Source: Octopus sinensis
Lineage: Eukaryota
Length of the DNA stretch: 64,000 nucleotides
Reading direction: 5' to 3'
NCBI RefSeq assembly: GCF_006345805.1
Contig: NC_043007.1
Coordinates: 5,208,001-5,272,000 of the forward strand
The notes beneath the pieces were generated by a model. That model searched no databases and was not told the origin of the DNA. It saw nothing but the letters and a program-made list of their open reading frames with translations. A program made the position numbers and the translations under genes. Position 1 is the first letter of the stretch, and every line of letters begins with the position of its first letter. Positions 3,852 through 48,480 of the stretch are shown piece by piece.

Positions 3852-3937
3852 TGCATTACAACCATTTCAAGTGGCTTCATTTAATTGAACAAGGCAATCA
3901 TTGCATCAATTTAAATGCAGTGCCATCATCAGCTGCA
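3852..3937 (-). ncRNA. Type I hammerhead ribozyme motif with extended stem II, in a Penelope-like remnant (~3745-3975)
   Basis: Minus strand: tgcag-CTGATGA-tggc...long stem II...gccactt-GAAA-tggttg-TA-atgca. Flank atcaaaataa.caacaggatatc is shared with the 14731 element. Confidence 0.7.
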
Positions 3938-4082
3938 CAAATAAACAGGATTTTAACGAGTTGGACACATTAATATAATTTTTTCTCAAATACTTTAACA
4001 GAGCAAACAGATGGAAGAAATCCATGTTGTAGCTAAGAATAGACTACACTTGGAAGTGTAGCACTACTTCTAAACTATATCA

Positions 4083-4454
4083 TTTTCTGCAACCCCATCA
4101 CCCCTAACATCTGCCACCTAACTCCTCAGACTGCAACCCCCTTTATTATGTGTGGGGTGCAGTTGAGCAAGAGACCAATAAAACTCCTTATAACACCAAA
4201 GATGAACTGAAGGCAGGGATTATGGCTGCATTCACCGACTTAAACAAGGAGACTGTCCAGAAGAGTTGCAGGAGATTCCAAAGTCGTCTGGAGGCCTTGG
4301 TTGAAGCCAATGGCGATTTTATAGAATAAATTTACTCTTTAATATTTCAAGATATTTCTATATAATTTTGGTAAATTTATCTGTTAAAATGAGATGTTAG
4401 TGATATTTTCATTTTTGCGTAATTTAGACGACAGTTTGTTCACCACACCCCGTA
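4083..4454 (+). mobile_element. Tc1/mariner maT (DD37D) transposase 3' fragment with right end
   Basis: Translates with small indels as PPNSSDCNPL.YYVWGAVEQETNKTPYNTKDELKAGIMAAFTDLNKETVQKSCRRFQSRLEALVEANGDFIE*. Ends ...caccccg-TA. Same family as 60962-61346. Confidence 0.9.
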
Positions 4455-4488
4455 TATGTATGAGTATATACATATATATGTATATATA

Positions 4489-4858
4489 GATGCAGGAGTG
4501 GTTGTGTGGTAAGAAGCTTGCTTCCCAATCACTTGGTTCTGGGTTCAGTCCCACTGCGTGGCACCTTGGGCAAGTGTCTTCTACTATAGCCTTGAGCCGA
4601 CCAAAGCCTTGTAAGTGGATTTGGTAGACAGAAACTTAAAGAAGCCCTGTGTGTGTGTGTATATTTGTCCCTTACCATCACTTGACAACCAATGTTGGTG
4701 TGTGTATGTTCCCATAACTTAGCAGTTCGGCAAAAGAGACTGATAGAAAAAGTACTAGGCTCACAAAGAATAAGTCCTGGGTTTGATCTGTTCAACTAAA
4801 GGTGGTGCTCCAGCATGGCTGCAGTTAAATGACCGAAACAAGCAAAAGAATAAAAGAA
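4489..4858 (+). mobile_element. SINE family B (tRNA head, CORE-like domain, internal (TG)n, tail), full length
   Basis: A-box TGGTTGTGTGG, B-box GGTTCAGTCCC, CORE-like GCACCTTGGGCAAGTGTCTT, tail ...GAAACAAG-(AAAAGA). Inserted in a (TA)n run. Confidence 0.9.
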
Positions 4859-5262
4859 TATATATATATATACATATATATATATGTGTGTATCTATGTG
4901 TGTGTCTGCTTGTCTTGCCATCACGTGGTAGTTGTAAATGGGTGCCACTGCCATACAAATGGTGGCATCCATTTCCAATATTCTGGGCAGACATGTCTGG
5001 CCACGGGGAAATACTGTCTGGTTTGAAAGCAGGTGAGAGTTGGTGACAGGAAAGGCATCCGGCCATTGGAAACTGCATCAGTAAACTCCGTCTGGAAAAT
5101 TGGACATTAAAACGGTGGAGTAGACTTCTACGAGGTCAGCTCCTGTCAAGAGTCCTATCCATGGAAGAGGCATGTTAAATGATGATGATGATGATGATAT
5201 ATTAATGTTGATTTTATGTTTAGTTATAGAAACAATTTTACATTAATCTGATGGGTTACTCT

Positions 5263-5420
5263 TCACGGAGTGGTTGGCATTAGGAAGGGCATCCAGCTGT
5301 AGAAACTCTGCCAGATCAGACTGGAGCCTGGTGCAGCCCCTAGCTTCCCAGACCCCGGTCGAACCGTCCAACCCGTGCTAGCGCGGAAAACCGATGTTAA
5401 ACGATGATGATGATGATGAT
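5263..5420 (+). mobile_element. SINE family C 3' part with (GAT)n tail
   Basis: GGCATTAGGAAGGGCATCCAGCTGTAGAAAC...GTTAAAC(GAT)n, shared with more than 12 copies in the window. Confidence 0.85.
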
Positions 5421-5424
5421 TGAT

Positions 5425-5661
5425 GAAGGTGTTTATAAGCCATTTAAGAAACACACAAAAACCGTTAGATTCACTTCAACATTTAAATTTAATTTGTCAA
5501 AATATTTTTGTCGCTTTGTGACCGCGACCTGTTCACTGACAAAACTTTGTGCTGCATCTCGCAGTCTCAAAGCGACAAAAATATTTTGACAAATTAAATT
5601 TAAATGTTGAAGAGAATCTAACGGTTTTTGTGTGTTTCTTAAATTGCTTATAAACACCTTC
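5425..5661. repeat. Near-perfect foldback (~103-bp arms), Penelope-like inverted terminal structure
   Basis: 5425-5527 is the reverse complement of 5559-5661 with about 4 mismatches. Confidence 0.9.
5493..5543 (-). ncRNA. Hammerhead ribozyme-like motif with G3:C8 swapped core
   Basis: Minus strand: TTTGTCA-GTGAACA-g-GTCGC-loop-GCGAC-(a)AA-AATATT-T-TGACAAA. 7-bp stem I, 5-bp stem II and palindromic stem III. G12 is A in this copy, consistent with CpG decay. Confidence 0.6.
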
Positions 5662-5814
5662 CACACTGCAATTGTTTTCGTTCCAGCACACAATCTCAGA
5701 TCAGGTCACTTGCTATGCAAGTACATCACCCTAAAATTTATTAATCTTATACGAGAAAGTTGTTGATAATAACTTTAAAGTTTCAACCTGTTAATCCAAT
5801 TCAACAGGCAGAAA

Positions 5815-5995
5815 TATAGAAAAAAAAGGAGTTAAAAATGAATTGGGAGTCTTTTAGATGCTTTAGTTTTAAGGCCTTCACTGGTTTCGCATATTCCTAT
5901 CTCACTTTACTTCTGAGGATCAGGACAATCTATGAAACCAGTTAAGCCTTTAAATCCAAAAGACTCCTAATGCATTATCAATTTCTTTTTCTATA
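5815..5995. mobile_element. Second Penelope-like foldback with degenerate hammerhead (+, 5909-5947)
   Basis: Imperfect inverted arms (gggagtcttt/aaagactcct; actggtttc/gaaaccagt). Plus strand ctt-CTGAGGA...GAAACCAGT-T-aag. Confidence 0.55.
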
Positions 5996-6500
5996 TATAC
6001 ACTCATCTACATCTATATACACACACATACACATATGGATAGCTAGATGAATATATTGATATACATCACCAATGTATTCCTTATTCTTTTATTGTTTTAC
6101 ATGTTTAACCCCATAGGCTGCGGCTCTGCTGGAGCACTGCTTTCTCAGTCCTGGAAGTAACGTAATAATTAAATACGTGAAAGACAAATGCTATTTAACA
6201 ACAGTTTCCTGTTTTGATTCCTGATACTTGCCGAAAACCAAATTGAAGCAAATTGATATCAACCTTTGAAGAATGCAGGATTTGGCTGCTCCGTGCTCTT
6301 CATTTTAGCAGATTTAATCCTCTTTCAAGAAGGGTATTGAAGAGAAAGAGTAGAAACACATTTGGCACTTCCAAGAAAAACTAGGAAGGACACATACGTG
6401 CAGAGTAAAACTTGATCCCTCTGGGTGAGTGTGCCATCCTTCTTGCCTCTGCTTATAAGATTCAATGTTCTTTTTCCTTTGACATCTTCAATCTCCATTT

Positions 6501-6880
6501 TATCATCATCATTTTTCGACCGTGGTCGAGACAATGGAATTTACTATGTTATGCCAGACTTCATGGTCCATCATAGCATTATGGAAGTCCTGTTGCTGGA
6601 TGTTTGTATCCCTGGAGATTACATCAGGGTAGGAGAGTGTGCGCCCTCTGGTATCATGAGCAGAAGGCTTCCAGAGGAGAAGAGTAGAAATTGCCTCGTT
6701 TTCAGCTCTACAACAATATCCAGCAAACTGGACTCTTCTACCTTTCACAAGAGGTGATACAGGTGGCAATTTCCCATATATTTGTACTTTGGTTGGATGA
6801 CGCTTTCACGAGAGATTTTGAGCTTTCATAAGGAGGCGAGTGTAAGTTCCATTCAGCCGCCTCTCAAGCTTCTTTGATAA
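6501..6880 (-). mobile_element. RTE-clade LINE 3' fragment (ORF C-terminus and (GAT)n tail)
   Basis: LSKKLERRLNGTYTRLLMKAQNLS*KRHPTKVQIYGKLPPVSPLVKGRRVQFAGYCCR...LLLWKP...RGRTLSYPDVISRDT...MMDHEVWHNIV, a typical RTE C-terminus with an internal stop. Confidence 0.9.
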
Positions 6881-6898
6881 CACACGCACACACACACC

Positions 6899-7052
6899 AT
6901 CATCATCATCATTGTTCAACCATGGTCGAGACAATGGAATTTACTGTGTTATGCCAGACTTCACGGTCCATCATAGCATTACGGAGGTCCTGTTGCTGTA
7001 TGCCTGTATCCCTGGAAATTACATCAGCATAGGAGAGTGTGCGCCCTCTGGT
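6899..7052 (-). mobile_element. Second, shorter 3' copy of the same RTE LINE
   Basis: About 85-90% identical by eye to 6501-6652. Confidence 0.85.
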
Positions 7053-7557
7053 TTCGCGAGCATCTGCTCCATTTTATAGTGAGATTGCCAGAACTGAAAG
7101 CATGTAGGAATGATGCCTGGCACTCCTGAAGCATTAATGTTCCACTCAAAGTAGTTTTCTGCTGGTCTTTGAACCACTTTTTTGATCCAACAGTCAGGTG
7201 TTGACAATGTTGCTACTGGCCGTACCATACGTATAGCATACATGTCTTCTATTTGTCCAAGATGTCACAATTCATGCTCTGTGTATAGAACAGATTCAAT
7301 AATAGTGCAGGTGTAGATTTGATAGAAGATTTTTTTATGAGTAATCCTATCACATCAGGTGATAGAAACGATCTTATGAAGACAGTGGGGTGAGGGCTTA
7401 AAAATCTCTTTTGTCTTAATATGCCAGAAGTATGTGGCCCATGTCTCAAACATATAGAAAATAGGGGGGAAAACAGATTACCTGAGAGACTGGAACCTTC
7501 GTATGAAGGCTGGAGTGTTTAGAAAGACTCTGTGAGTGTTTCTTTGGAAGAACTCAC

Positions 7558-7682
7558 CTTGCAATGGCGGCGGATGCCTGTGTGAGGTTGTTTAGAATGC
7601 TTGCCATCCAATGTGCATTGATTGGAAATGATGTTGTCCAGGTGTTTGGATTGGGAAAGTGCAGCTTGTTGTTGTTGTTGAA
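7558..7682 (-). CDS. Candidate internal exon (125 nt) of an unidentified host gene
   Basis: Strong acceptor cctttcctccttctcactttctcAG and consensus donor AAG|GTGAGT in non-repeat DNA. Two frames are open (QQQQQAALSQSKHLDNIISNQCTLDGKHSKQPHTGIRRHCK or FNNNNKLHFPNPNTWTTSFPINAHWMASILNNLTQASAAIA). No protein family recognised. Confidence 0.45.
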
Positions 7683-8585
7683 CTGAGAAAGTGAGAAGGA
7701 GGAAAGGTAGGGCAGTATGCCATTGGCAGATGTGTGTATCTATGTGTCTATATACACTTGCATACACACGTATGTGTGTGTGTATGTGTATATACACACA
7801 CATATATATGTTCATACCAATATAATACATATTATATGCTTAAACATTAATATATATATCCACGCACAACATACCTACAAGCATACATATATTATGCCTA
7901 TAAGCATTTATATTTATATATATATAATCATCATCATCATTGTCCTTTATATAATCAGTTAAACTTCTTAACCAAAATATCAATGTTGGCACACACAGAG
8001 CTGTTGGATATTAACTTCATTTTGTTCAGTGAAGGATGAAAAAAAAATTCTCAGAAACATCACTTAACAACAACTTGAGATGTTTGCTCTTCTTCTCTTA
8101 TTTATTTCCTTGTTGCAAATGAGAGGGGGGATCGACCCATGGACTTTTACCACCACCACCACCACCACTTTACATCCATTTCCATGCTTCCATCAGCTGG
8201 ACTGTTCAACAGGAGATAAGTGAGTTGAAAGACTACTTGCTCCAATATCTTCGCTTGGGCACAGTTTCTATGGCTGGATGCTCTTCCCCACGGCAACCAT
8301 TCCACAGAGTGGACTGTAAAAGTGCAAATTTTCAAGGCACCAGCACAAAAAAAGAGGTTTCCTTGCCATTTGCAAAAACTAAAAACCATTCTCAAGCCCT
8401 GTGGTGTTGTTGGTGAATTCAATTTGCCAAACACTTCTGTACTGAGTGCTTCGTGTGGCACCAGTACTGGTGAGTTTGCCACATGGATCACAAAGGTAGA
8501 AAAAGTGCCCCATGATGTTATGAATCAGGTTTATTATAGTGAGAGGACGAGAGTGGAGAGAATAACAGAGAGCAACAATGGGGCC

Positions 8586-8762
8586 ATCATCATCATCATC
8601 GTTTAACGTCCGCTTTCCATGCTAGCATGGGTTGGACGAATGACTGAGGGCTGGCGAACCAGATGGCTGCACCAGGCTTCAATCTTGATCTGGCAGAGTT
8701 TCTACAGCTGGATGCCCTTCCTAATGCCAACCACTCCGAGAGTGTAGTGGGTGCTTTTACAT
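8586..8762 (-). mobile_element. SINE family C 3' part
   Basis: (CAT)n-cgtttaacgtccgctttccatgctagc... is the reverse complement of the family C tail. Confidence 0.85.
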
Positions 8763-9112
8763 GCTATGAATGACAAAATTTCTAGCAGATATAAAGGGAC
8801 ATTGCTGAGTTTGTGGCATATGTCTATTCAAAGGTTGAACCTTTGAGTTAATGAAGGGATGTTTATATAGTCTTTTGACAGATTAGAAACCACAGCTAAA
8901 TCTCCCTCATATAAATTGCTATAGAAGCAGTTTCCAACTCTTTTTATTATCTCTTTTAAGTTAAATTTTCTATAGACCCCTGGGTCACTTAACAGACCCC
9001 TAGACCTTCAGTACTTTGTTTGAAGACTTCCCTCACCTTCACCACCATCACCAAGGATGTGAAAGCCCTTGGCTACCAACACTGCCCTACAGATTAAGAA
9101 AAAGACATTGTG

Positions 9113-9225
9113 TACGAGGTGGGACTGAAAAGTTCCTAGCTTTGAGTAAAAGGAAATACAGGCGGATCAGTTAATTGTGATTTTCTTCAACATATTCCCC
9201 TCTCAGATTCACATGCTTATTGCAC
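9113..9225 (+). mobile_element. Mariner-type terminal fragment
   Basis: TA-CGAGGTGGGACTGAAAAGTTCC resembles a mariner TIR start. No partner end seen. Confidence 0.5.
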
Positions 9226-9371
9226 AATTTGAGATGGTGATGATTGTTATGATGATGATGATGATGATGATGAAGACGATGATGATGATGATGTGTTTTT
9301 AAGTTGGTGTTATAAACAAATGAAACGCAGAGTATTCAATTCATGTAGAATAACAGTTATACTTGGATTTT

Positions 9372-9523
9372 GTTCAAATTCTGCCGAGGTCGACTTTGCC
9401 TTTCATCCTTTTGGGGTCGATAAATAAAGCACCAGTTTCGCACTGAGGTCAATATAATTGACTTAATCCCTTTGTCTGTCCTTGCTTGTCCCCGCTATCT
9501 TTAACCCCTTGTAGGCAGTAAAG

Positions 9524-9527
<4 letters not shown>
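9372..9527 (+). mobile_element. SINE family A, 5'-truncated, ending in (TA)n
   Basis: Matches the family A core and tail. Confidence 0.85.
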
Positions 9528-9575
<48 letters not shown>

Positions 9576-9683
9576 TATATAATTAGGGTTCAGCAACGAT
9601 TTGCTTCACCACATATCGAAGTTTAGAAATATATATATATATATATATTAAGAGAGAGAGAGAGAAAGACAGGTATAGTTTGA

Positions 9684-9785
9684 TTCTCTGCCTGAAGAAT
9701 TTCTAATAGGAGATATCTTATATATTTATCCTACAAGTACAATCTTGGAACTCCTATTAGCAAATGAAACATGTGTAATGGTGAA
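9684..9785 (+). ncRNA. Hammerhead ribozyme motif with long stem II (Penelope-like remnant)
   Basis: CTGAAGA (9692-9698), stem II ATTTCTAATAGGAG / CTCCTATTAG-c-AAAT, then GAA-ACATGT (palindromic)-GTA. Stem I is degenerate (ttctctgc/atggtgaa). Confidence 0.65.
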
Positions 9786-11204
9786 TAAAAAATACCAAAA
9801 CATTTCCAGCATCCTGTTTCAATGTATAATTATTCTGCAAAGAATATTTCCAGAATTTTCAACTCTTATTGTGTATCTTACATAAATATGACATCTACAC
9901 ACAGCATTGGAAGACTGGAATAAGCAGATGTGCTTCAAGAGGACTCGGCTTAGATTTGGACCCTAGCTACATGGCATAGATAGATAGATATATAGACAGA
10001 CTGACAGACAGACTCACGAATGGAAAAATTGACAGCTAGAAAGTGAAACAGACAGACAGATATGTATGTGTGTGTGTGTGTTTGTCACCACCCCTCACTT
10101 GATTCGTTTACACCCCTATAACTTAGCAGTCCAAGAAAAGGAACTAATAGAGTAAAGTAAGTATTGGAATTACAAACAGAATCATTCAAGAAATGCCCCC
10201 AACATTGCTGCAGTCCAGTGACTGGAACAAGTAAAAATAGTGGAAGACTAAAAAATAATGCTCCATTATGGTCATAGCCTAGCAATCTGATAAATGGAAT
10301 GAAAAAAAAAAAATTGCCAAAACTAAAACAAGATTGCATCCAAATGTTACCACAAGGACAAATTATTCCTGAAAAACTACAACAGTGAAATGAAACATCA
10401 CTGATCCTCTGAATGTAAAATGGATCTGTCTAAATAGAAACAGGATTATTAACACACATGCTGCCTCATAATGCTAAATGTCAGGAACCAATGCTGCCAT
10501 TTTTGAAAGATTTCTTCATTAATATTTTTAAAGACCACCAGCTGGTGTGAAACTTTGAACAATGGCTCAATCGATTTTAAGGTCTAATGGGGAAATTTTT
10601 TTTCATTTTAATTATTTATATTTTCATGACTAATTGCATAATTAATTTTTTTTTAAATGGTATTTAGATCCTGTAAAAATTTAAAATTTTGAATATTTTG
10701 TAGTTATTATTGAATTTTAACATTTCTTTTAAATGAGGTTTGATATTAAGATTTAAAGATTAAAACTTTTCATTTCATTCAAACACATCTAGGTTACATT
10801 CACACTTTTATAGTCTGGTTTGACAAAAGAAATTCCACTAAAAAAGTAAATATATAAAAAATATTTTCATATATTTTACTTTTTCTTGATAGATTTCTGT
10901 TTTGTTTTGGTATTTGTTTTGCATGCCAGTTCCCTTTTCTTGTTTCATTTCTCTTCTCGTTTATTCTTATATAAATCACAGTTAATTAACTTTCTAAATT
11001 CTATTCTGTCTTATATCTCACAAATTCTCGGTTTCCTTTTTCTACACCCTTGTAGACAAAAGTCTCCAGGAAAATATGACAAAATTGGTCAGAAACATGG
11101 CCCTGAAATGACCCTCTATCATAGAAAATCTTTTTCTTATAATTCATTTTGATTTTAACTCTTGATACCAAAGATGCCAGTTCTTGGTTCTATGATACAA
11201 TCTA

Positions 11205-11530
11205 CCTGACTTGACTTGACTTGAGACAGCATTCACCCAGGGTGGGTTGAGCTGGCTCCATTCATCCTCAATGCTGCATCTCTCACAAACGCTGACCAGA
11301 CCTGGCGATTTGAGGTTAACGACCGCGTGATCTCCAACCACTCCTTATTCCAGCGGCGAACACCATAGATATGGGGGCCTAGGTTGGGTTCCAGATCAGC
11401 CTTGACTGTCATCAGCCAGGTTTTTCGTTGTCCACCACATCGCTTTCGCCAATCCTGAAGGGGATCTGGGGCAATTGCTTCATAGACGAATTCTCCTGGT
11501 TGATGATGGAGGGCATGACCCAGCAAACAT
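11205..11530 (-). mobile_element. RTE-clade LINE 3' fragment with (CAAGT)n tail
   Basis: LGHALHHQPGE...WRKRCGGQRKTWLMTVKADLEP..GP.IYG.RRWNKEWL......NRQVWSAFVRDA.....STHPG* followed by caagtcaagtcaagtc. Confidence 0.85.
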
Positions 11531-12279
11531 ACATGTCTCGTTAGGAGATGTCCTTCAAATATTCCTCATACAATCTACCTGTTTTAAACTGATCTAAATT
11601 AAAGCCTTCCAGCAAAAGTTTGCATTAATATGGATTCCAAGGACCAACTTAACAACAACAAGGTTATTTTAATAATTTGGTCATTACTTGAAACAAAGGC
11701 AGAATACAATAATGCAAGTATAGTAACAGAAAGGTTACTCCGCTTATATCACTTAACCAGAAATCCAGCTCAAATGCTTACCCTAAAGTGGACTCTGTCA
11801 AACATTACCCAAGGGTCTGGTAATGGTGTTAAACTGGAAATTAGACTTAATCTATTATCCAGGGCACAGGAATTTGAACTCAGAACTCAATGATCTGGAA
11901 CAAATACCACAAAGCATTGTTTCTTTTTTCTAATGCTCTAACGAATCCATCAGTCTGCTTCTCTGATTGGCATTTCTTAACTCCAGAAAAAGAAAAAACA
12001 AAGGTGACGTTGGTAGAATTTGAACTTACAATGTAAGAAAACATTTCATCTGATACTCTAATGACTGAGCCAGTCCACAGCCTCATGTCTACACCAAACT
12101 CAAATTTAAGATTACGTATTGCCTGGCTTTTATTATATTTGTTCGCTAGAAGTTGGCCAAGGATGAAATAACAACTGTAAAGCCTGGTTGACCAACAGCA
12201 TAATAATGGTTACTCAAAAAACAATGCTTTCTCAATAAGTTGTGTACTTGAGTGCACACACGTTTTGCTTTTAAAACTC

Positions 12280-12860
12280 TGCTTGCAAAGACCTGTTGAA
12301 GCAAGCGAAATCAAAATCAAATTCGATGACAGGCATCCATGCTAGCGGGGTGCAAAGAGCACCATATGAGTGTGATCTTTGACAGAGCGGCTAACCGGCT
12401 TCCGTGCCAGTGGCACTTAAAAGGCACCATTCGAGTGTGATCATTACCAGCGTTGCATTACTGGCACTCAAGCCCTATGCTAGTAGGGTATTAAGAGCAC
12501 CATCCGAGCGTGATCATCGCCAGAGCGGCTATCTGGCCTCCATGCCGGTGGCACGATAAAAACACCATTCAAGAGTGATCATTACCAGCATCGCCTTACT
12601 GGCACCCCGCTGGTGGCATGTGTAAAAGATTCAAGCGAGGTCGTTGCCAGTACCACCTGACTGGCCCCGTGCCGGTGGCACGTAAAAACAGCCACTATAC
12701 TCTCAGAGTGGTTGGCATTAGGAAGGGTATCCAGCTGTAGAAACTCTGCCAGATCAAGATTGAAGCCTGGTGCAGCCATCTGGTTCACCAGCCCTCAGTT
12801 ATACGTCCAACCCATGCTAGCATGGAAAGCGGACGTTAAACGATGATGATGATGATGATG
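12280..12860 (+). mobile_element. SINE family C long form with internal ~55-60 bp tandem modules
   Basis: Repeated GTGCC(A/G)GTGGCAC..AAAA.CACCATTCGAG modules, then the shared 3' end and (GAT)n. Confidence 0.85.
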
Positions 12861-13419
12861 ACACAAATAAAAAACAGCATTGTGTACGCAGAAGGTTTCC
12901 TTTTTTTTAATTCATGCTGTGTGTTTTAAGAAGTTTGTTTCTCAACCACATAGTTTCAGATTCCGTCTCGCTGTGGCCCATTGGGTGTCTTCTGCAATAG
13001 TTTACCCGGCCATGTATGAACACCAATATGATGCTGGAGCAGCTCTCTTTCTCACATCCTGGATATAGCCCTGAGTCATGGATGAAGGGACCAAGAAGCC
13101 GTCTATGTCTACTCATGACTACATAAGGTGCCTAAAACAAGCAGCAGACCCATGCGCATATTACCAAGTCATACTTGCTCATTTGTGGTAGCTGGCTCTA
13201 CTGCAGTTGGCTGCTCTTTCTAGCAGGTTGAGTGATTAAATTAGGGTTCCACAGTTGGTTCATAAATACAAGAACGTTCTCCTTCTAGCAAACTATCGCT
13301 CACATTATGGCATAACTTTTGGATCCAAAGCTAAAACCCTTCATGAAGATATTCCTATTGAAATACATGATCCTGGTTTTGATTGATTTATTTATTTTTT
13401 GTTTTGTTACTGGGTCTAA

Positions 13420-13790
13420 AAGAGGGGACAGTGCCCATGGCCTACGAGACTAGAGAGGGTGATACTAGTGATGTTCCTCTTGAACTTTTGTAAGTGAAAA
13501 CCCATGGGAAAAAGACATGAGCAGAGAATGAATTGCAGAGAGATGGGGTTCTGGGAAGGAAATACTGGATGTCATGAGTATTGCAGGGCTTTGTAGGGGA
13601 CACAACAGGAGTGATGAGGGGACGAAAGATATGTGGGTTAGAAATGTTTGAGTAGAGATGGTACAAGTTCATAGACTGCCAGTTCTGAGGAGACATTATA
13701 CCCGTGAGTTAGGGGCTAGAGTATGTCTATGAGGAATTTTATGCTAATCAGTCAAGTGGTCCTTTTTTAGAATGCAATCTAGAATGTCTC
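13420..13790 (-). mobile_element. CR1/L2-group LINE 3' fragment, degenerate
   Basis: Minus-strand pieces DILDCILKK... and YFLPRTPSLCNSFSAHVF resemble the CR1-group C-terminus (LDRIQKK; FFPRTxxLWNSLP). Confidence 0.6.
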
Positions 13791-14472: not shown

Positions 14473-14474
<2 letters not shown>

Positions 14475-14671
14475 CTAATCCAAACAAGAAAACACAAAAA
14501 AACACAACGCGAGGACGTGGAACAAATATAGTATTATTGGACGCTCAGGAAAGAAGGAAAGAAGGAGGGTTTATCGTTTCGAGCGGAGCTCTTCGTCAGA
14601 AACATAAGAGAAGGAAAGATCCAGAGAAGGGAAGACAGAGGAAAAAAATTCGACAACGGTACACACGCGGT

Positions 14672-14675
<4 letters not shown>
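14473..14675 (-). mobile_element. ~200-bp non-coding Penelope/retrozyme-like insert between (TA)n runs, with minimal hammerhead at 14569-14603
   Basis: Minus strand GTTT-CTGACGA-a-GAGC-tcc-GCTC-GAAA-CGA-TA-AAC. Flanked on both sides by (TA)n. Confidence 0.8.
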
Positions 14676-14723: not shown

Positions 14724-14730
14724 TATATCT

Positions 14731-14980
14731 ATCAAAATAAGCAACAAGGATATCCAAGGTAATGTAGTACAATCGTTTCATGCTACTTCCTTTTATTAAA
14801 CACTGTAAGTATTACATCAGTTTTAAAATGTCGAGCAATCTTCAACCACATATAGATATACCTTGGATATCCTTGTTGCTTATTTTGATTATAATCACCC
14901 CATTTGATTTATATGGATAATACCATACTGGTGCCTTTAACTTAAGTACCATATTCATCTGAATCTAAATTTTGCTGAAC
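14731..14980 (-). mobile_element. Penelope-like element with 31-bp inverted repeat (14731-14761/14859-14889) and hammerhead at 14762-14851
   Basis: Minus strand ATGTGG-TTGAAGA-ttgct...agcat-GAAA-CGATTG-TA-CTACAT. Flanked by (TA)n. Confidence 0.65.
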
Positions 14981-22495: not shown

Positions 22496-22496
22496 G

Positions 22497-27996: not shown

Positions 27997-28192
27997 TGGA
28001 GAGTTTATGAAAAAAACAAAAGACGAAGACAGGTGGTGTACAAAACAAACAAATGTATTAGTATAATGTTCAGAAATAGAAAATGTCTTTTACGTTTCGA
28101 GCCTATGCTCTGCTACAGAAAGGGACACAGAAAAAAACAAGGAGAGAAACAAGGAGAGAACAAAAATATGTGTAGTGGCTAATGATCTATCA
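27997..28192 (-). mobile_element. ~190-bp retrozyme/Penelope-like insert with hammerhead-like motif at 28087-28122
   Basis: Reverse-complement copy of 48297-48482. Minus strand CTTT-CTGTAGC-a-GAGC-atag-GCTC-GAAACGT-A-AAAG. Adjacent to (TA)n. Confidence 0.75.
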
Positions 28193-28206
28193 TGTGTGTG
28201 TATATA

Positions 28207-38455: not shown

Positions 38456-38491
<36 letters not shown>

Positions 38492-38685
38492 ACACACATA
38501 CACAATTTGTGCACGTTTAAAGACGTCATTAACCTGTGCTTTTGTGTGACAATTGTCTCCTTGACATAAGCAAAGAAACAAGATCAGACAAGATACAAAA
38601 GTTTTGCCAAGAAACAATAAATTCTTCAAGGAGGTTATAAAAAAAGTGAAGACAGACAGACAGACAGACAGATAGACAGATAGAC

Positions 38686-38719
<34 letters not shown>

Positions 38720-38781
38720 GTAGAGATAGATAGGTAGATAGATAGATAGGTAGATAGATAGGTAGATAGATAGGTAGATAG
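38275..38781. repeat. (CTAT)n array (38275-38490) and complementary (GACA/GATA)n array (38651-38781)
   Basis: Directly visible. Confidence 0.93.
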
Positions 38782-39538
38782 CAAATAACAGAAACAGGTA
38801 CCAACAACAAAATAATGGTTAGAAGCTTATTGAATTAAGTAGATGAGTTCTATTTCGTTTTTGTAGTACACGACCTCTCTTTCAATCTCACACGTACAGT
38901 CTCTCTCTCACACACACACACACAATCTGTCCCTCAATGTTCGTTTTCCTTTTCTTCTTCCCTTGACATTTATTATCAGAAGAATACAGGAAACAGCCAT
39001 ACAATAATTTCTGATAAGATACAAGGCGAGTCAGTAGTTGATCGGGTTAGGTGTTAGAAGATACCATCAACTTTCTTGTACTTTATTTTATCGACCCCAA
39101 AAGGATGAAAGGCTAAGTTGACCGCTGCGGGATTTGAACTCAGAACATAAAGAGTCGGAAAGAATCGCGCAAAGCATTTTGCCAGACGCTCTAATGATCC
39201 TCGGTAATGATTATTACCGCCTCTAACGTTTCTAACGAGACCACAAACTCAACCCCGTGGGTTAAAAGGGGAGGTTGATCTCGGCCGAATTTGAACTCAG
39301 AATGGAGAAAGCTTTAACTAAACACCACAAAATATATTTGCCCGCCACCTCTGCTCCAAATAATTGTTTCTAATTTAGACTCAACGTTCGCAATTTTGAG
39401 GGGTGGATGTTAACGTTAGTCGATACCCTCCACCTCAGTAATTGACTAATACTTTAGTTGATCGATCTCGAAAGGGATTCGAACTCAGAACGTAAAGAAC
39501 TGAAAGAAATACCACAAAAGTATTTTTCCACACTCTGT

Positions 39539-41690
39539 CGATTCTGTCATTCCACAGCCCTATCGATTCTGTCATTCCACCGCCCTATCAATTCTGTCAT
39601 TCCATCGCCCTATCGATTCTATCATTCCACTGCCCTATGGATTCTGTCATTCCACCGCCCTATCGATTCTGTCATTCCACCGCCCTATCGATTCTGTCAT
39701 TCCACAGCCCTTTCGATTCTGTCATTCCACAGCCCTTTCAATTCTGTCATTCCACCGCCCTATCGATTCTATCATTCCACCGCCCTTTCGATTCTGTCAT
39801 TCCACCGCCCTATCGATTCTGTCATTCCACCGCCCTTTCGATTCTGTCATTCCACAGCCCTTTCGATTCTATCATTCCACCGCCCTATCGATTCTGTCAT
39901 TCCACCGCCCTTTCGATTCTGTCATTCCACCGCCCTATCGATTCTGTCATTCCACCGCCCTATCGATTCTGTCATTCCACCGCCCTATCGATTCTTTTAT
40001 TTCACTGCCCTATCGATTCTGTCATTCCACCGCCCTATCGATTCTGTCATTCCACCGCCCTATCGATTCTGTTATTTCACTGCCCTATCGATTCTGTCAT
40101 TCCACCACCCTATCGATTCTGTCATTCCACCGCCCTATCGATTCTGTTATTTCACTGCCCTATCGATTCTGTCATTCCACCGCCCTATCGATTCTGTCAT
40201 TCCACCGCCCTATCGATTCTGTCATTCCACAGCCCTATCGATTCTGTCATTCCACCGCCCTATCGATTCTGTCATTCCACCGCCCTATCGATTCTATCAT
40301 TGCACTGCCCTATCGATTCTATCATTCCACTGCCCTTTCGATTCTGTCATTCCACAGCCCTTTCGATTCTGTAATTCCACCGCCCTATCGATTCTATCAT
40401 TCCACCGCCCTTTCGATTCTGTCATTCCACAGCCCTTTCGATTCTGTCATTCCACTGCCCTATCGATTCTGTCATTCCACTGCCCTATCGATTCTGTCAT
40501 TCCACAGCCCTATCGATTCTGTCATTCCACCGCCCTATCGATTCTATCATTCCACCGCCCTTTCGATTCTGTCATTCCACTGCCCTATCGATTCTGTCAT
40601 TCCACAGCCCTATCGATTCTATCATTCCACTGCCCTATCGATTCTGTCATTCCACCGCCCTATCGATTCTGTCATTCCATCACCCTTTCGATTCTGTCAT
40701 TCCACTGCCCTTTCGATTCTGTAATTCCACCGCCCTTTCGATTCTGTCATTCCACAGCCCTTTCAATTCTGTCATTCCACAGCTCTTTCGATTCTGTAAT
40801 TCCACCGCCCTATCGATTCTATCATTCCACCGCCCTTTCGATTCTGTCATTCCACTGCCCTATCGATTCTGTCATTCCACAGCCCTATCGATTCTATCAT
40901 TCCACTGCCCTATCGATTCTGTCATTCCACCGCCCTGTCGATTCTGTCATTCCATCGCCCTTTCGATTCTGTCATTCCACTGCCCTATCGATTCTATCAT
41001 TCCACCGCCCTTTCGATTGTCATTCCACAGCCCTATCGATTCTGTCATTCCACAGCCCTTTCGATTCTGTAATTCCACCGCCCTATCGATTCTGTCATTC
41101 CACAGCCCTTTCGATTCTGTAATTCCACCGCCCTATCGATTCTATCATTCCACTGCCCTTTCGATTCTGTAATTCCACCGCCCTATCGATTCTGTCATTC
41201 CACAGCCCTATCCATTCTGTCATTCCACCGTCTTATCGATTCTGTCATTCCACCGCCCTATCCATTCTGTCATTCCACTGCCCTATCGATTCTATCATTC
41301 CACCGCCCTTTCGATTCTGTCATTCCACAGCCCTTTCGATTCTGTCATTCCACAGCCCTTTCGATTCTGTAATTCCACCGCCCTATCGATTCTGTCATTC
41401 CACCGCCCTATCGATTTTGTCATTCTGTCATTCCACCGCCCTATCGATTCTGTCATTCCACTGCCCTATCGATTCTGTCATTCCACTGCCCTATCGATTC
41501 TGTCATTCCACTGCCCTATCGATTCTGTCATTCCACTGCCCTATCGATTCTGTCATTCCACCGCCCTATCGATTGTGTCATTCCACAGCCCTATCGATTC
41601 TGTCATTCCACTGCCCTATCGATTCTGTCATTCCACTGCCCTATCGATTCTGTCATTCCACTGCCCTATCGATTCTGTCATTCCACCGTC
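39539..41690. repeat. 25-bp minisatellite, ~86 units, consensus CGATTCTGTCATTCCACCGCCCTAT
   Basis: Directly visible tandem array without spacers. Continuous with a minus-strand SINE A-like head at 39474-39538. Confidence 0.97.
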
Positions 41691-42040
41691 CTTTAACAGT
41701 TTCTAAATTACGTACAAGAGCAGAAATTTGGGATATCATTACTTGACCGGTACTTTATTTTATCGACCACAAAAGCACAAAAAGCAATGCTGACTTCGGC
41801 GGTATTTGAACTCAGAACGTAAACAGCCAGAACGAAATTCCGCGTCTCTAAGTGACAATTCTTTTACCAAAATCAATAACTCATTTCGTTAGGATTTAAA
41901 AGAATCTACTGAACTGGAGATAAAGCCACAATCAAGTACTAAGTCAAGTATTTATGAGATAGTGGGGGTCACATTCATTATACTTATTAGGGGTCCGTTA
42001 CTGTTTAAAATTATATCGTACACCAGACAAAAGTAGTAGC

Positions 42041-42570
42041 GGTATAACTATAGTTTGGCGCCTCACCCGACTTTGTTTCTCCAAATTTCTAAGAATTTTC
42101 TTACAGTTATTTTAACGAAATTTCGCAGATACTTTTTTGAGGCTCTACATTACGATTAGCTTGAAAAAAAAATTGAGTTTCGGACGATTCTCCTTCGCGC
42201 CTGACATTGTTTTCTCATAGGTCTCTTCAAAATGCATATTTTTTTTTAATGCCACTTTGAGGAAATACGTTCTCGAGATTGTAGGTTACGTGATGTCACA
42301 GTTTCAAATCAATAAATCAGAGACAAAAGGTGAAAAATACTAAAACAGTCTCAGATATTAGTTGTAACAAAGTCTAGGCGGAGGCGACGAAAAGCGAACC
42401 GAAACTCCTCTCGGTTTCTTTTACTGAATTTTATTAACATAATTATAATTCACAGCCTCAAAAACATATCTCTTCGAGATTTTACTTAAAAACACGCATT
42501 TTTAAAAGGTAAATTATGAAAAAACAAAGTTGATGGAGAGAGGATCGGGGCCCTAATCTGTAGTTATACC
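42041..42570. mobile_element. Putative MITE with 13-bp TIR GGTATAACTA(T/C)AG
   Basis: ggtataactatag at 42041 and ctgtagttatacc at 42558-42570, plus an internal inverted segment gactttgtt/aacaaagtc. No clear TSD. Confidence 0.45.
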
Positions 42571-42750
42571 TATTTCTTTACTACCTACAAGGAGCTACAC
42601 ACAGAGGGGACAAACAAGGACAGACAAACGGATTAAGTTGATTATATCGACTCCAGTGCGCAACTGGTACTTATTTAATCGACCCCGAAAAGATGAAAGG
42701 CAAAGTCGACCTCGGCGGAATCTGAACTCAGAACGTAGCGGCAGACGAAA
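42571..42750 (-). mobile_element. SINE family A, 5'-truncated
   Basis: 12-bp TSD tgtagttatacc at 42559-42570 and 42751-42762. Confidence 0.9.
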
Positions 42751-43934
42751 TGTAGTTATACCATGGTGTGTGTGTGTGTGTGTGTAACAGTGAACTGTCT
42801 AATAGAATATATCAATGGGAACAGTTATTTGCATTCTGTGAGTTTCGTGGTACTTGATACCGTAAAATGTTAAAATATATAAATTACCAAGGAATTTGAC
42901 TTGGCTATCCACGACGGAGCTAGTGTTAGTTTAATATTCCCAGAAAGCATATGAAATGCGAATGGAAATTATAATTGAAGACTTGTGGTTCCTTCTCTTT
43001 TTCTCAGCCAAATTCGAGGCCTTGTGCTTACAGTATGACGAAATCGATATTTACAGTTAAACACACGTGTTGTTGTTGTTGTTCTTGTGCGAAGCGCAAT
43101 GAATAGACTGGGATAGTGGGAGCAGGTTAAACAGAAGAACGACATCGCAAAGGAAATAGTATTATAAGAGACGCAGGAGTGTTGCAGTCTATGAAAGCGA
43201 AGACGCTTCATTTCGTAAAATTCCAGTCGATTTCACCAGAAACCAATTTCTTGACAACAAAGAAAACTAAAATAAACGAGAAAAAAGCAGAATGCAAAAG
43301 AATCTGTTGTAATGGAAGTGCCATTCTTACTTCATTTGGATGACGGTGGTGAAACTTAGGGGAACATCGACCCCAGTGTTCAATTGGTACATCGATCCCA
43401 GAAGGATGAAAAGTAAAGTCGATCTGGACAGAATTTGAACTCGGAACGTGAGGACGGACAAATTGCCGCTGTTTTATCCGGTGTGCTAACCATTCTGCCA
43501 GCTCTCCGTCTTGATGATGGTTTCTTAATTAGATCCAAAGTGTTGTTAGGGAGGAATTTAATCGAAGCTCCACTGGTACTCTAATTTATCGACCCGGAGA
43601 CGGGGAATGGTGGTGGTGGGGGAGATAAAGTTAACCACGGCGGGATTTGAACTCAGAACGTAAAAAGCCAGAAGTATCGGCGATCTGTGGAAAGGTATTG
43701 ATATGATCAAAAGGATTCCAGTCACGAGAACCCAATATTTCCGGGGTTTTTTTCTTTTCTTTTTTAACCAGGTATTTAGCGATATATTATCCAATGTGTT
43801 CTTACATCTTATGTTTGTCACGAGCCTTTTGAGACTCATCAGGTCGGACCTTTTCCAGTCTTTCAAAGGGTGTAAGCATCCGTTTAGAGTACAGCTTTGG
43901 CTCTGAATAGGACGCCAGTCTTTTGCGTGGTTAA

Positions 43935-44070
43935 AGTCCCTCAGCTGTGGACTGGAGCATCATAAAATGAAACGTTCTACTCAAGAACACAGCGCACCGC
44001 CCGGTCTGGGAATTGAAACCACATTACTACGATTGTGAGTCCAATAACCTAACCACCAAGCTACGCGCCT
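43935..44070 (-). mobile_element. tRNA-headed SINE (family D-like); related copies at ~19073-19195 (+) and ~63733-63850 (+)
   Basis: Minus strand TAGCTTGGTGGTTAGG...GGTTTCAATTCCCAGACCGGGC...GTGTTCTTGAG. Confidence 0.65.
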
Positions 44071-45611
44071 GGGTACCAGTTGAAAGTAGAGTTGGTTGCT
44101 ATTTCTAGCAGGTCGAGCAAACACAATGAAGATCCTCGTGTCTATTAGCAGTAATGTATGACTTGCCAGTACATCCGCTTGATAACAGCTTCTGGTTTAG
44201 GCACGAGGGAATAACCGATCCGATCGATCCCAGCACTTGACTGGTGATTGATTTTTATCCCGAGTTAAGGAAAAATGAAATTGACCTCGGCGGAGTTTGA
44301 ACTCGGAACGCAAAGACATTTTACCCGATGCTCTAACGCAGGTATGGACAACCCTTTTCGAGGAGAGGGCCGCATAAGACATCACTCGTTAACAGGCAAG
44401 CCCCACTACTTAAAAAAATTCAAGGTAAATTTTCGTTCATCGAACCATTCAGTAAATCCCGCGGTTCGTTGGTTTGCAACCAGCTGTGGAGACATTTGAC
44501 TGCAATCCAGGAATCGAGTTTGAAATTGTTCGTTAGATTAATTAAACAATTTTAGTAATTACAATTAATAACGGTAAACACTAAAAATGATTAAAAAAAC
44601 ATAAAAGTGAAAAAAGGGAAAAATGTAAATAAAATAAAGGGACATACACGTTCGTTTGGTTATTTCTAGCACTGCCAGAGATTGGTGTCTTCCTCTAAGA
44701 AATTTCGAGGAAACCGGAAAAAAAAAACTGTCGGTATTGCCGCCGGCGACCACGAAACCGAAGCATTGGAAGTGCTGGGGACCTCTTGCAACATTTTGGT
44801 GACCTCTGTCCGATGGGATATCCAACAAAAGAAATAAAAAAAAAAACCTTCGTTAGCGACTCAATTCCCACCTCTTGAATGTATTTCAAATGCCACGTGT
44901 TGAACAATGGAGAGAAGTCCGGGAAAAGCCAGCTGTTACGACCTCAGAGCGCAGGAAAAACGCAACCAACAGCATTTGTTTTTTTTTGTTTTGTTTGTTA
45001 TGTATTCTTCTGTTTTATATAGCGAGAAATTTATTCCGAAGAATTTATTATTATTTATTTCGAAAATGTCATATTTTAACATTCCCCACCCCCTCCCGAT
45101 TAGTGCCCTTTTCTTTTCCCGTGAAGGAAGGAAAAGGGCACATTCCTTCCCCATGATTGGTATTCTAAAACTCTGACAAAAATATGTAATTCCCCGACAG
45201 ATTTTGATATTTCTGTAACCCTCACCCCTATCCGGCAAGGGTTACTATGTCCGTAGTGGATTCCATCCCACCCACTGAGTCCGTCATTCTATCGCCCTTT
45301 TTTGTTCGTACTTCTATAATAACCCCAAGAAGAAACATCAACATTTTACAAGAGGCCGGTGGAAACTACTAGTCTAGCATCATGGCGAACCCAAGGGGCT
45401 AGGGGCGCTGAGGGACACGTGCCCTCCTCAACAAAGGAAGTGCGCCCTTCTAGATAATGTTTGTTATCCTCTTTTCTCCTGGAATAGTATTCTTTTCTGA
45501 TCTTGTGCTCTCCCTTCGAAAAATTCCTGGGACCGCGCCTAGGCGTGGTGTTTATCCCAGGTCAGCCCTGATCAAGCAGCAGAGCGCTGATAATCAAAGG
45601 TATTCCAGAAG

Positions 45612-45841
45612 GGCGGCGAGCTGGCAGAATCGTTAGCACGCCGGGCGAAATGCGTAGCCGTATTTCGTCTGCCGTTACGTTCCGAGTTCAAATTCCGCCG
45701 AGGTCGACTTTGCCTTTCATCCTTTCGGGATCGATAAATTAAGTACCAGTTACGTACTGGGGTCGATGTAATCGACATAATCAGTTTGTCTGTCTTTGTG
45801 TGTCCCCTCTATGTTTAGCCCCTTGTGGGTAGTAAAGAAAT
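45612..45841 (+). mobile_element. SINE family A, consensus-like, CpGs intact
   Basis: 19-bp duplication aggtattccagaagggcgg at 45598-45616 and 45842-45860, overlapping the element ends. Confidence 0.93.
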
Positions 45842-46798
45842 AGGTATTCCAGAAGGGCGGATGAGCTCCTTGTGGGCTAATGGCAATTCTGTCCGTGAAG
45901 GCAATGACAAACCACCCAGATTTTTTCTCTGCCAAGAAAACACAGAGAAAATCAGAACGAATTTAATCTCGAAGACTTTCTCTAGTGTCATCGAGACACT
46001 GCAAAAGCGGACATGACGATGACGACGACGATTCCAATCATGGCCATCACATATTTCGGATCACATTAACCAAAGCGCCCTTACCTTTAAAAAGAAACAA
46101 ACAAAACAGTAGGATATGACTTGGCAGTATCTGGCTGCTGTTTCTAGCAAACTACCTGGCAGTGTAGAAGTTCTTTCGTTTGTATGATTTCTATGTTGTA
46201 TTCCGATAAAATGTCTGACGTAAGAATTCACAGACATATGACCAATACCAGGAACTTCATGGTGCGTTTTATAGAAGCTACAACACGGTAGACGATCGGG
46301 GCCTAACACGGAGCAGACCGGACCTAATTGTGCAGCCTATTCAGTGTAACAAAGTATGAATGCTGGTTTTCGGTAAAGCGGAGGACGCTCAGGGTTTCAA
46401 ATCCCACCCAAGTCAACTTGGGAAATTTTTACATTCGTCTCCGATCTCTGGTCAGTGTAGTCAGTCTGGGTACCACCCGAAGCAGTCCTCTACCGCCCCC
46501 CCCAATCCCAAGCCTATGCAAGCTTATACCGTAGACCCAAAAGTGCCCCCTCCATAAAAGCATCGACCGAAGCAGACTGCCCCCTCTCCCTCCTCAGCAA
46601 TTTACTGTCCTTATTCTATGGGGATGGAAAAGAGTAAGCAATGGATTGAGGCAAAACTCATTTCTTTGCTTTCTTCCTTCTCCATGAGAAAGTGACAGGT
46701 GTTCTCAAAGACCGCCGATCACCGTTTGCAGTAGCTTGCAATGGTAACTTTCATCTTTTGCGGGCGATAACTAAAATATCAATCCCAGAGTGGGGTCG

Positions 46799-46854
<56 letters not shown>

Positions 46855-48262
46855 GTGATTGATTCCTTCCGAAAGAAGTTAGTTGTGGTCAGGCCTGGAG
46901 TCCACCAGTTCTTCGATGACCGAGACAAGTCGCATGTCTCAACGTACCCCTATCCACTAACGAAGCTAGAGTGTGTGCCGCCCGGGGCGGCCCTTCCATT
47001 TGTCACCCTCGGATCCCACAAAAAACACATATTGTGTACAGTAGACCCAAAGTGGTGCCGCCCGTGGAGAACTGCCCCTACTGCTCCCCGCTAGTTATGC
47101 TAGTACCCCTATCACTCCACCAGGACACGATGACCCAAAGCACGACAAAGTATGTCTTCAATAAATGCGAACAGTTTTACATTTCATGAGTTACCACGAA
47201 TTTTCCGAGCCCCAAGCGATATATATATTACATATCCTCCCTTAGGCCCTAATCGAAGCAATAGTGATGTAAACCGCTTAGTCAAACCAGCGTGACCATC
47301 AAAAGCTACAAAGCGTACGCTACCTAATCAACAACTCGAAATTAAGGAACATGTTTTTCATAAAATATTATTAAATCATCAGACAACACATTTCACTAAA
47401 AAAAGGGTCTCAGCCAGAAGAAGCAGTAAAATAAATTATTCTTTAATTGGTTACCTTTTCTAAGATTGCAGAGTTGTGATTTGGCTGATATCATAAATAA
47501 ATATATTAATATTATACTGCTCTACATCTTGGAGTGTACCTCTTCTTTCGGATTTATGTTTTTTTACAAACGACACACACACACACGGTCACTCTCAGAC
47601 CGATACTTCGTAGCGATGCTCATGAAGGTTCCTGCTTCATTCTTTAGCTCCCGCTCGAACAGTTCCTTTGTTGTTTGGCCCCAGCTCAGTCTTGTTCGAG
47701 CAGATAGTCCATCTGTGACCATCCCGTCTATTCGTATGCACAGTGTCCATTGACAAACATATTGACAAGCGCATTAACACGCCCTTCTTTTCTAAGGTGT
47801 GACTCGGCAGAATTTGTTTGCCGTTTCTAGCAAACCGATTAACCATATAGATATTCTCAGTTTGTTGTTTGGCCCCCTCCCCCAGCTCAGTTTTGGTCGA
47901 ACAGATATTCCAACTGTGACCATCCCGTCGATTCCCAGGTTGAGTCCATTGAGAAATGGATGTGTCCTCATTTTCTAAGACAGTTTTTAACTTGAAAGGA
48001 TTAGCCTGGCCTAGCGAAGGTGACCGGGTGAGGGCGGCGGTATGTGATTAGTCAACCAAACCAACACAACACAGTCGCTATTTACTTCACCGTACCAACA
48101 AATGTATGCAATGATAATGTACGTACCCCGCCCCCTCAAAAAATGTTGGCTCATTACATATATCGGGTTTTATTAGAAGCTGAAAACTTCACAATTCGTT
48201 TACTCGGAGTTTATCATTTTCGATCTTAGGTCGAGAAAACTTGGAGTAACGATACGTGAAGT

Positions 48263-48296
<34 letters not shown>

Positions 48297-48299
<3 letters not shown>

Positions 48300-48480
48300 A
48301 GATTGTTAGCTACTACACACAATTTTCTCTCTCCTTTTTTTTTTTTTTTCTGTGTCCCTTTCTGTAGAAGAGCGTAGGCTCGAAACGTAAAAGACTTTTT
48401 CTATTCCTGAGCGTTAAACTAATACATCTGTTTGTTTTGTACACCACCTGTCTTCGTCTTTTGTTGTTTTCGTAAACTCT

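Follow-up and report, generated by a model that had tools for sequence, protein, structure and literature searches.

Minimal hammerhead ribozymes (min-HHRs) of metazoan Penelope-like elements (PLEs) were described by Cervera & de la Pena 2014 (PMC4209133); monomers showed no cleavage in that work. The Hydra-clade PLE Hydra-1_Obim of Octopus bimaculoides carries a 3′ HHR (Craig et al. 2021, PMC8557442). For Poseidon PAc of Anolis, the accessible sections of Frangieh et al. 2024 (PMC11167929) describe a PLE tail, an internal start of reverse transcription, an HHR that is protein-assisted and dispensable, and partial rescue by a C3G/G8C exchange.

The window analysed here, a stretch of 64,000 nt from Octopus sinensis, contains eight motifs that are genuine hammerhead-ribozyme sequences; the PLE ends that carry them are short fragments, most of which are damaged. 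This motif class, PLE min-HHRs in solo ends, is already known and its arrangement has been published. The type I layout, the unpaired base before stem II and the palindromic stem III are shared with the min-HHRs of PMC4209133, as are the many families per genome, the predominance of solo truncated copies and a U3:A8 variant. In contrast, the representatives of Fig. S3, in text form, include none with a G3:C8 (our family G), U6 (A) or C4 (B) core, and no cephalopod. Families C and D resemble the Hydra PLEs (PMC8557442) in their CxCX5C linker, the lack of CCHH, C-terminal CxxC and CxH, the (TA)n target and a canonical HHR at the 3′ end, but differ from Hydra-1_Obim by a stem II of ~60 nt, an 8-nt stem III palindrome, an asparagine-rich ORF insert and many subfamilies. 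Poseidon PAc, as far as the accessible part of PMC11167929 goes, likewise carries its HHR within the pLTR, inserts into AT-rich targets, forms two 3′ ends (tail) and has copies spanning the uncut site. There, however, C3G/G8C is an engineered partial rescue, whereas it is the natural state of our family G, and extra-G initiator 5′ ends are absent from that part of the report. Non-LTR retrozymes, according to the accessible portions of PMC7229834 and 10.64898/2026.07.22.740005, are similar in being non-coding, PLE-related and equipped with a type I HHR. Unlike them, the families presented here have no tandem HHR-to-HHR units and end away from the cut site, and four of them possess coding parents.

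Results

An earlier note on this DNA had proposed eight type I hammerheads of the minimal PLE type belonging to several families. This is upheld, as all layouts (8/8) were found in place and every motif is embedded in a dispersed repeat of the genome. Seven families, A to G, cover the eight sites because those at 28087 and 48358 (86% mutual likeness) both belong to family A.

The family D copy (3820..4053, minus strand) consists of the 3′ end (pLTR) alone of a PLE of the Hydra type. Its hammerhead (3852-3938) has the core CUGAUGA with C3 at 3932, a U·U at the base of stem II, a broken first stem I pair and a predicted cut after 3858. A sense copy of family G (5425..5560, minus strand), which begins at the 5′ pile-up site of the family, carries a hammerhead at 5493-5543 with a G3:C8 core, GUGAACA (G3 at 5536); here, the catalytic G12 is replaced by A at 5509. 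An inverted, 5′-truncated copy (5559..5729, plus strand) with a 55-nt 'tail' and without a core adjoins it. The family F foldback (5804..6023, plus strand) is old, 72-89% alike to other copies, and its hammerhead-like motif (5909-5947) has the core CUGAGGA, the commonest family core being UUGAAAA (U3:A8). Family E is represented by an old element with a tail (9674..9955, plus strand), a core CUGAAGA (C3 at 9692), a long stem II, a decayed 8-nt palindrome, a broken first stem I pair and a predicted cut after 9777. The family B solo end (14474..14674, minus strand; hammerhead 14569-14603) is related to A and lies between (TA)n runs; it reads CUGACGA versus CCGACGA (U4C) in the family majority, and U16.1 is A at 14574. 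A solo 3′ end of the Hydra-type family C (14730..14857, minus strand; hammerhead 14762-14851) has U instead of C3 at 14845, the family core being CUGAAGA, and is followed by an inverted copy with a tail and without a core (14858..14960, plus strand). Of the two solo pLTRs of the Neptune-type family A, the first (27997..28193, minus strand; hammerhead 28087-28122) has the core CUGUAGC and has lost A9. The second (48295..48483, plus strand) lies inside (TA)n, and its hammerhead (48358-48393) equals the family majority sequence with the core CUGUAGA (A6U) and a predicted cut after 48389. Six of the eight copies have a lesion at a conserved position. Foldbacks span 5425-5729, 5804-6023 and 14730-14960. 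No tandem array was found among the eight copies, none of the tandem repeats of the window contains an HHR, and tblastn with PLE frames detected no ORF remnants there.

Cores were scored by the CUGANGA, GAAA and UH boxes or by a compensated 3:8 pair. Among the best-scoring copies, the canonical core was present in 13/19 (C), 16/17 (D) and 13/18 (E). Family G had GUGAACA in 16/19, family A CUGUAGA in 25/28 (deviating at position 6) and family B CCGACGA in 9/13 (deviating at position 4); family F showed U3:A8 in 7/17, with 5 unparsed. Each core variant is stable in its lineage, G carrying G3:C8, A carrying U6, B carrying C4, and F and others carrying U3:A8. Stem III is palindromic in the families generally, as had been noted before, reading ACGU in A and B, AAUAUU in G, ACCGGU in F and 8 nt in C/D. 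At site 9684 it had been misread; judging from the copies of family E, U16.1-A17 is preceded by a palindrome of 8 nt with CpG decay. Stem covariation, the absence of which had been named beforehand as speaking against ribozymes, was measured in the C/D superfamily and is present there. In an alignment of 40 rows, 81.1% of the cells were paired as compared to 73.9% after shuffling and 26-54% in slid controls, and 17 pairs had changed on both sides; in stem I this applied to 5/8 pairs and in stem II to 4/5. As the cores were pre-selected by pattern and the rows are related, these values do not measure core conservation and the shuffle count is no probability. The 8-nt stem III palindromes of C/D covary as well (96.9% paired).

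In the proposed Rfam search, cmscan of the window listed 127 matches at E<=5, and none of these was a hammerhead. A hammerhead descriptor gave 0 strict and 2 relaxed matches in the window, which among the eight sites recovered only 48358; block shuffles gave 0.5 matches on average and 3 at most, so that single copies do not exceed chance on their own and support comes from the family level. MFE folds of single copies recovered stems I and II only partly, and two-strand folds contained no dimeric hammerhead.

The search for linked ORFs, also proposed earlier, located parents for families A, C, D and G (five sites), which lie 0.6-1.8 kb downstream of PLE RT/GIY-YIG frames on the same strand. Family A shows a pLTR-RT/EN-pLTR structure at one locus (L328) and, at 13 separate places, is preceded by an EN at a distance of 600-1020 bp. 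It alone gave an RVT_1 Pfam match; the remaining RT/EN domains were recognised from motifs by eye. At a family C locus (L250), RT and EN are followed by a 96% copy 955 bp further on. The EN lies 1.0-1.8 kb upstream in 8 loci of family D and ~1.0-1.35 kb upstream in 5/30 family G loci picked for a longer 5′ end; locus L331 of the latter has a 722-aa frame with RT and EN. The C/D frames bear, by eye, the Hydra clade marks listed above, and those of A (L338) and G (L331) have a CX2-5CxxC linker, CCHH and a C-terminal EN. By these motifs, A probably belongs to the Neptune clade and G to Neptune or Nematis. A profile search of ~2 Mb of collected family loci revealed no EN-linked copy of B, E or F. 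An intact Neptune ORF (P0001) was rejected as a parent for all seven families; its own end carries U3:A8.

The upstream ends of the copies lie 20-80 nt from the core and the downstream ends 110-190 nt from it; neither coincides with the cut site. Two 3′ ends occur in C, D, E and G, and an inverted partner is present in 20/49 G loci. The preference for (TA)n suggested earlier is borne out by the copies with a locatable 3′ end: (TA)4 lies within 40 nt of it in 15/19 (A), 19/22 (B), 13/21 (C), 9/19 (D), 3/8 (E) and 6/15 (G), the background being 6.7% of random 40-mers. The density of about one motif per 8 kb holds for the window but is local, as a genome sample of 400 kb, taken at 40 evenly distributed places, contained 10 matches of at least 60 nt to the seven families and one more. 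No arrays were seen among 164 family loci.

Family G has 6,270 exact matches in the genome (control, 0). G3:C8 was present in 93 of the 100 copies listed and C3:G8 in none of them. The paired core positions 3 and 8 are thus swapped in a family of thousands of copies. A natural G3:C8 was not found in the searchable literature, which leaves out most subscription journals and unreadable figures; the swap appears there solely as a laboratory rescue. PMC13282606, checked for octopus hammerheads, does not contain the word 'hammerhead'. A locus considered as a distant G subfamily (L408) was rejected since its 64% score was due to stops and a frameshift, and it therefore gives no evidence that G3:C8 has been conserved between subfamilies that diverged deeply.

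RNA reads came from three raw runs chosen by species label (~6% of each), are mostly 90-95% alike, possibly from another species, and of unknown strandedness. They contained family G sequence in equal amounts of both orientations, 74-80% of it running into unrelated sequence. There was no pile-up of read starts or ends at the cut site or at the predicted TSS, no back-joint indicative of circles among the RNA joints listed from ordinary RNA-seq, and, among the rows shown, no splice joint or loose end at the putative acceptor site that coincides with part of the core in A, D and G. No Pfam match above the cutoff was obtained in 95 of 111 unmasked window frames plus the equivalent of 5 other picks. 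Consequently, no host gene was located, and the supposed intronic location of the inserts finds no support.

Discussion

Very probably, the motifs are minimal type I hammerheads in solo pLTRs of seven families, four of them with PLE RT/GIY-YIG parents, and the fragments likely arose by nicking of AT-rich DNA and copying of a short, uncut 5′ part of the transcript. Direct support comes from the parent ORFs (A, C, D, G), the two fixed 3′ ends, the inverted 5′ copies, the (TA)n targets, the stem covariation and the stable core variants. An enzyme of the element would nick the target and copy just this part of the transcript. Transcription would proceed from a promoter within the pLTR, in G from a TATA at −30 plus an initiator. 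Reverse transcription would start internally, 120-190 nt beyond the core, and the cDNA would extend to the cap, leaving an extra G. The ribozyme may be selected solely in active parents, working as a dimer or with the help of an element protein, and the solo copies, probably inert, would subsequently decay under neutrality. Contrary points are that no parent ORF of B, E and F was found in the collected loci, that family A has no extra G and that RNA starts do not pile up at the predicted TSS.

The earlier note had instead regarded the inserts as ribozyme-bearing non-autonomous retroelements. On this view, they would be independent retrozymes whose transcripts are cut, made circular and inserted anew. 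Most copies are indeed short and non-coding, B, E and F lack a parent in the collected loci, E copies share almost no upstream sequence, and animal retrozymes derive from PLE pLTRs according to the accessible part of 10.64898/2026.07.22.740005. Proper retrozyme units, however, run from HHR to HHR in tandem, whereas only 4/164 family loci hold two copies in the same orientation less than 700 bp apart, and the copy ends lie away from the cut site. As four families stand behind RT/GIY-YIG frames, the inserts are solo pLTR ends rather than a separate retrozyme family, and an independent life cycle is very unlikely. It is also very unlikely that intronic solo copies cut host pre-mRNA or release regulatory small RNAs. 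Reads of G continuing into unrelated sequence would fit carriage in host transcripts, but monomeric min-HHRs remained uncut (PMC4209133), in a foldback copy the ribozyme strand would pair with the antisense arm beside it, and both orientations were equal. Given the lesions in 6/8 copies and the lack of tandem arrays, a located host gene and read pile-ups, pre-mRNA cutting or circles, as envisaged earlier, are unsupported.

Whether the variant hammerheads G3:C8, A6U and U4C are catalytic is less certain. It is possible, if rather doubtful, that they are not, the fold having been retained to bind an element protein or to serve as part of a promoter or splice signal. Consistent with this, HHR mutants left insertion in vitro unaffected (accessible part of PMC11167929), changes of A6 and U4 reduce activity (PMC3088659), the cut triplet of G is UUU, and the A and G cores overlap a pyrimidine-rich AG resembling a splice acceptor. 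On the other hand, G preserves the Watson-Crick pair 3:8 by a double change, U3:A8 families coexist, U6 is constant in A, where N7 differs between subfamilies with 45-83% EN likeness, and GAAA and U16.1 are kept. A similar weighing applies to the sharp 5′ end of G, where 38/76 copies start at −25..−18 and 12 precisely on the initiator A, which belongs to a TCAG 23 nt ahead of G3; 11 of these 12 show a G where the parent has C. A reverse-transcriptase stall, a fold-back or a splice boundary in place of a transcription start would explain this end, though not probably. A palindrome at −22..−12 accounts for fold-backs (7/10 copies ending at −20 are also preceded by G), 32/76 copies have an inverted copy upstream, and the site resembles a 3′ splice acceptor with branch-point and CAG, 7 copies beginning at the would-be exon start. 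Against this, a TATA-like run lies exactly 30 nt ahead of the modal end, and the seven would-be-exon copies share no upstream exon sequence. Of the 11 extra G's, 4 are explicable, by eye, by an adjacent inverted or repeated copy; removal of explicable cases leaves a G excess at a single position (7/8, p about 2e-4). Family A 5′ ends cluster more loosely. We therefore consider family G copies likely to derive from capped, uncut sense templates, as judged from their sequences. The searchable literature contains no report of a cap-derived G in PLEs.

We tentatively propose, at somewhat less than even confidence, that family G, an animal retroelement, reached thousands of copies while carrying a natural, working G3:C8 hammerhead, and that each of its short copies is the complete cDNA of a sense transcript, capped and initiated at a TATA/initiator promoter inside the pLTR. 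If true, PLEs would copy capped, uncut sense RNA; the 5′ pile-up and extra G bear on the choice between sense and antisense PLE templates left open in PMC3846280. The genome would then be a natural library of cores (C3:G8, U3:A8, G3:C8, C4 and U6) missed by standard searches. With a natural high-copy G3:C8, the set of 3:8 swaps occurring in nature would be complete; it also shows that PLE ribozymes are undercounted when searched for by descriptor or Rfam. Families with active-looking parents and differing cores in one genome make it directly testable why PLEs retain a poor, dispensable ribozyme.

Hammerhead families and their density

All eight type I hammerhead layouts that the earlier note had described were found in the window as claimed. 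They belong to seven dispersed repeat families, A (sites 28087 and 48358), B (14569), C (14762), D (3852), E (9684), F (5909) and G (5493). A first-look search of the 2.72-Gb assembly yielded 1,117–2,157 candidate copies for each of six families and 40 for family F. Each on its own, the single window copies are weak support because Rfam matched no hammerhead in the window and a descriptor search gave 0 strict and 2 relaxed matches there, against 0.5 in shuffles. In 400 kb taken from 40 evenly spaced places, the descriptor gave 5 strict matches against 0.5 in shuffled sequence and 11 relaxed against 3.0, and the named families gave 10. Therefore, the motifs occur genome-wide, at a rate nearer one per 20–40 kb than the one per 8 kb first proposed. 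Random stretches (loci L390, L399, L403, L405, L407, L410 and L415) hold at least four more hammerhead families, with U3:A8 as the paired core letters 3 and 8 at two loci.

The window also contains two minisatellites, of 25 bp in 86 copies (39538–41692) and of 31 bp in 25 copies (55981–56752). At 58443–59435 a 488-bp unit is duplicated head to tail with 100% identity, which would reflect either a very recent event or an assembly artefact.

Parent Penelope-like elements

Walking upstream from longer copies until coding frames appeared on the same strand linked families A, C, D and G to reverse transcriptase (RT) and GIY-YIG endonuclease (EN) frames of Penelope-like elements (PLEs); for B, which is similar to A, and for E and F no linked ORF was found among the loci examined. 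Family A shows a pLTR-RT/EN-pLTR arrangement with an RVT_1 match at L328 (pLTR, the PLE end repeat) and an EN 600–1020 bp upstream at 13 distinct places. At L250, RT and EN remnants are followed by a 96% copy of C, and at eight loci an EN lies 1.0–1.8 kb upstream of D. The EN of C and D has a CxCX5C linker and terminal CxxC/CxH without CCHH, traits of the Hydra clade. Among 30 G loci chosen for a longer 5′ end, five carry an EN 1.0–1.35 kb upstream, and L331 has an RT+EN frame of 722 aa. The 3′ ends fall at one or two fixed positions in every family, mostly within (TA)n, and an inverted 5′-truncated partner is frequent (20 of 49 G loci). Such tails and inversions are PLE hallmarks.

Several further PLEs were observed. 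An intact 850-aa Neptune-type RT+GIY-YIG frame lies at L165:5554–8103 (contig C1), and its element carries a U3:A8 hammerhead at the 3′ end, some 130 nt ahead of (TA)n. This element has probably been active recently, as its 143 scored copies are 85–100% identical in the C-terminal part and several 781-aa frames are open. At L399, two inverted U3:A8 hammerhead ends (3171 and 7870) flank another Neptune-type element, 56–71% alike to the intact frame. Hydra-type ORFs at L228, L225, L199 and L204 have long asparagine-rich inserts in the RT-EN interval, the same as described for rotifer Penelope elements. Compared by eye, one ORF is similar to Hydra-1_Obim.

Core variants and fold

While C, D and E have the canonical core, A reads CUGUAGA in 25 of 28 copies, with U6 constant and N7 variable across subfamilies whose EN are 45–83% alike. 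The core of B is CCGACGA in 9 of 13 (identical rows merged), that of F mostly UUGAAAA and that of G GUGAACA. Family B shares its U4C core with an unrelated lineage, a Hydra subfamily (L267:1688–1772). In the G motif, located where other families have their hammerhead, stem I is 7 bp long and an unpaired base separates it from stem II, which has 5 bp, starts at G10.1-C11.1 and bears a loop that varies; then come GAAA, the palindrome AAUAUU and U17. The pattern of this motif has 6,270 exact matches in the assembly against 0 for the control; among 100 listed matches, 93 have G3:C8, seven have one change and none has C3:G8. The C3G/G8C exchange is a laboratory rescue, shown in a PLE too (PMC11167929). 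Natural U3:A8 cores have been published, and no natural G3:C8 core was found in the literature searched.

An alignment of 40 C/D-type copies, which represent many subfamilies, has 81.1% of its cells paired, compared with 73.9% when shuffled and 26–54% in slid controls, and 17 of 32 pairs are altered on both sides, including stems I and II and the stem III palindrome. Of the stem covariation and core conservation on which the earlier reading had been staked, this alignment supports the former; it is silent on the latter because its rows were chosen by core pattern and are mutually related.

Minimal hammerheads of PLEs are a known class (PMC4209133), and a canonical hammerhead is listed for an Octopus Hydra element in File S2 of PMC8557442. 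The G3:C8, U6 and C4 family cores and the 5′ ends with an extra G appear new relative to this class. The original observation is confirmed and its interpretation partly supported.

Fate of the window copies

Six of the eight window copies carry a lesion relative to their own family: G12A at 5493 (G), U16.1A at 14569 (B), C3U at 14762 (C), A9C at 28087 (A) and a broken first stem I pair at 3852 (D) and 9684 (E). The 48358 copy agrees with family A; the one at 5909 is old, and its stem I has 3 bp. None of the eight sites lies in a tandem unit, and same-orientation pairs occur at 4 of 164 family loci; judged by tandem arrangement, the inserts are not retrozymes. A monomeric minimal hammerhead did not cut in vitro (PMC4209133). 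In three RNA runs, family G was present in both directions, 74–80% of reads extended into other sequence, and no pile-up of starts or ends was seen in libraries of a kind that shows ends poorly; the reads fit passive carriage in host transcripts. A Pfam search of window frames found no host gene. On these grounds, the suggested cutting of pre-mRNA and production of circles is unsupported.

Origin of the short copies

For 76 G motif copies at the first places listed on C1, the 5′ start lies 18–25 nt before G3 in 38; 14 are longer and 24 shorter. Twelve begin exactly at the A of TCAG, 30 nt downstream of the start of a TATA-like run in the parent, and 11 of these have G in place of the parental C. 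An extra G can arise by cap copying, as seen in LINE and retrogene work. A neighbouring inverted or repeated copy could have templated four of the 11; without these the count is 7 of 8, with p about 2e-4. Against a cap origin may be held that a G also precedes 7 of the 10 copies whose end lies at −20, via fold-back, and that the start site also resembles a splice acceptor. The 5′ ends of A and B lie near initiator-like motifs, with less sharp clustering. PLE promoters within the pLTR are known. With internal RT starts (PMC11167929) just downstream and these 5′ ends, the simplest model would be a cDNA that runs from such a start up to the cap, across the uncut ribozyme. An antisense template has been proposed (PMC3846280); the extra G favours a sense template.

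In three families (A, D and G) the core is overlapped or adjoined by a pyrimidine-rich tract with AG at its end (window 48330–48368, 3932–3950(−) and 5530–5545(−)). The arrangement resembles that in Drosophila Penelope, where an intron ends at helix I; splicing at this place would destroy or alter the ribozyme.
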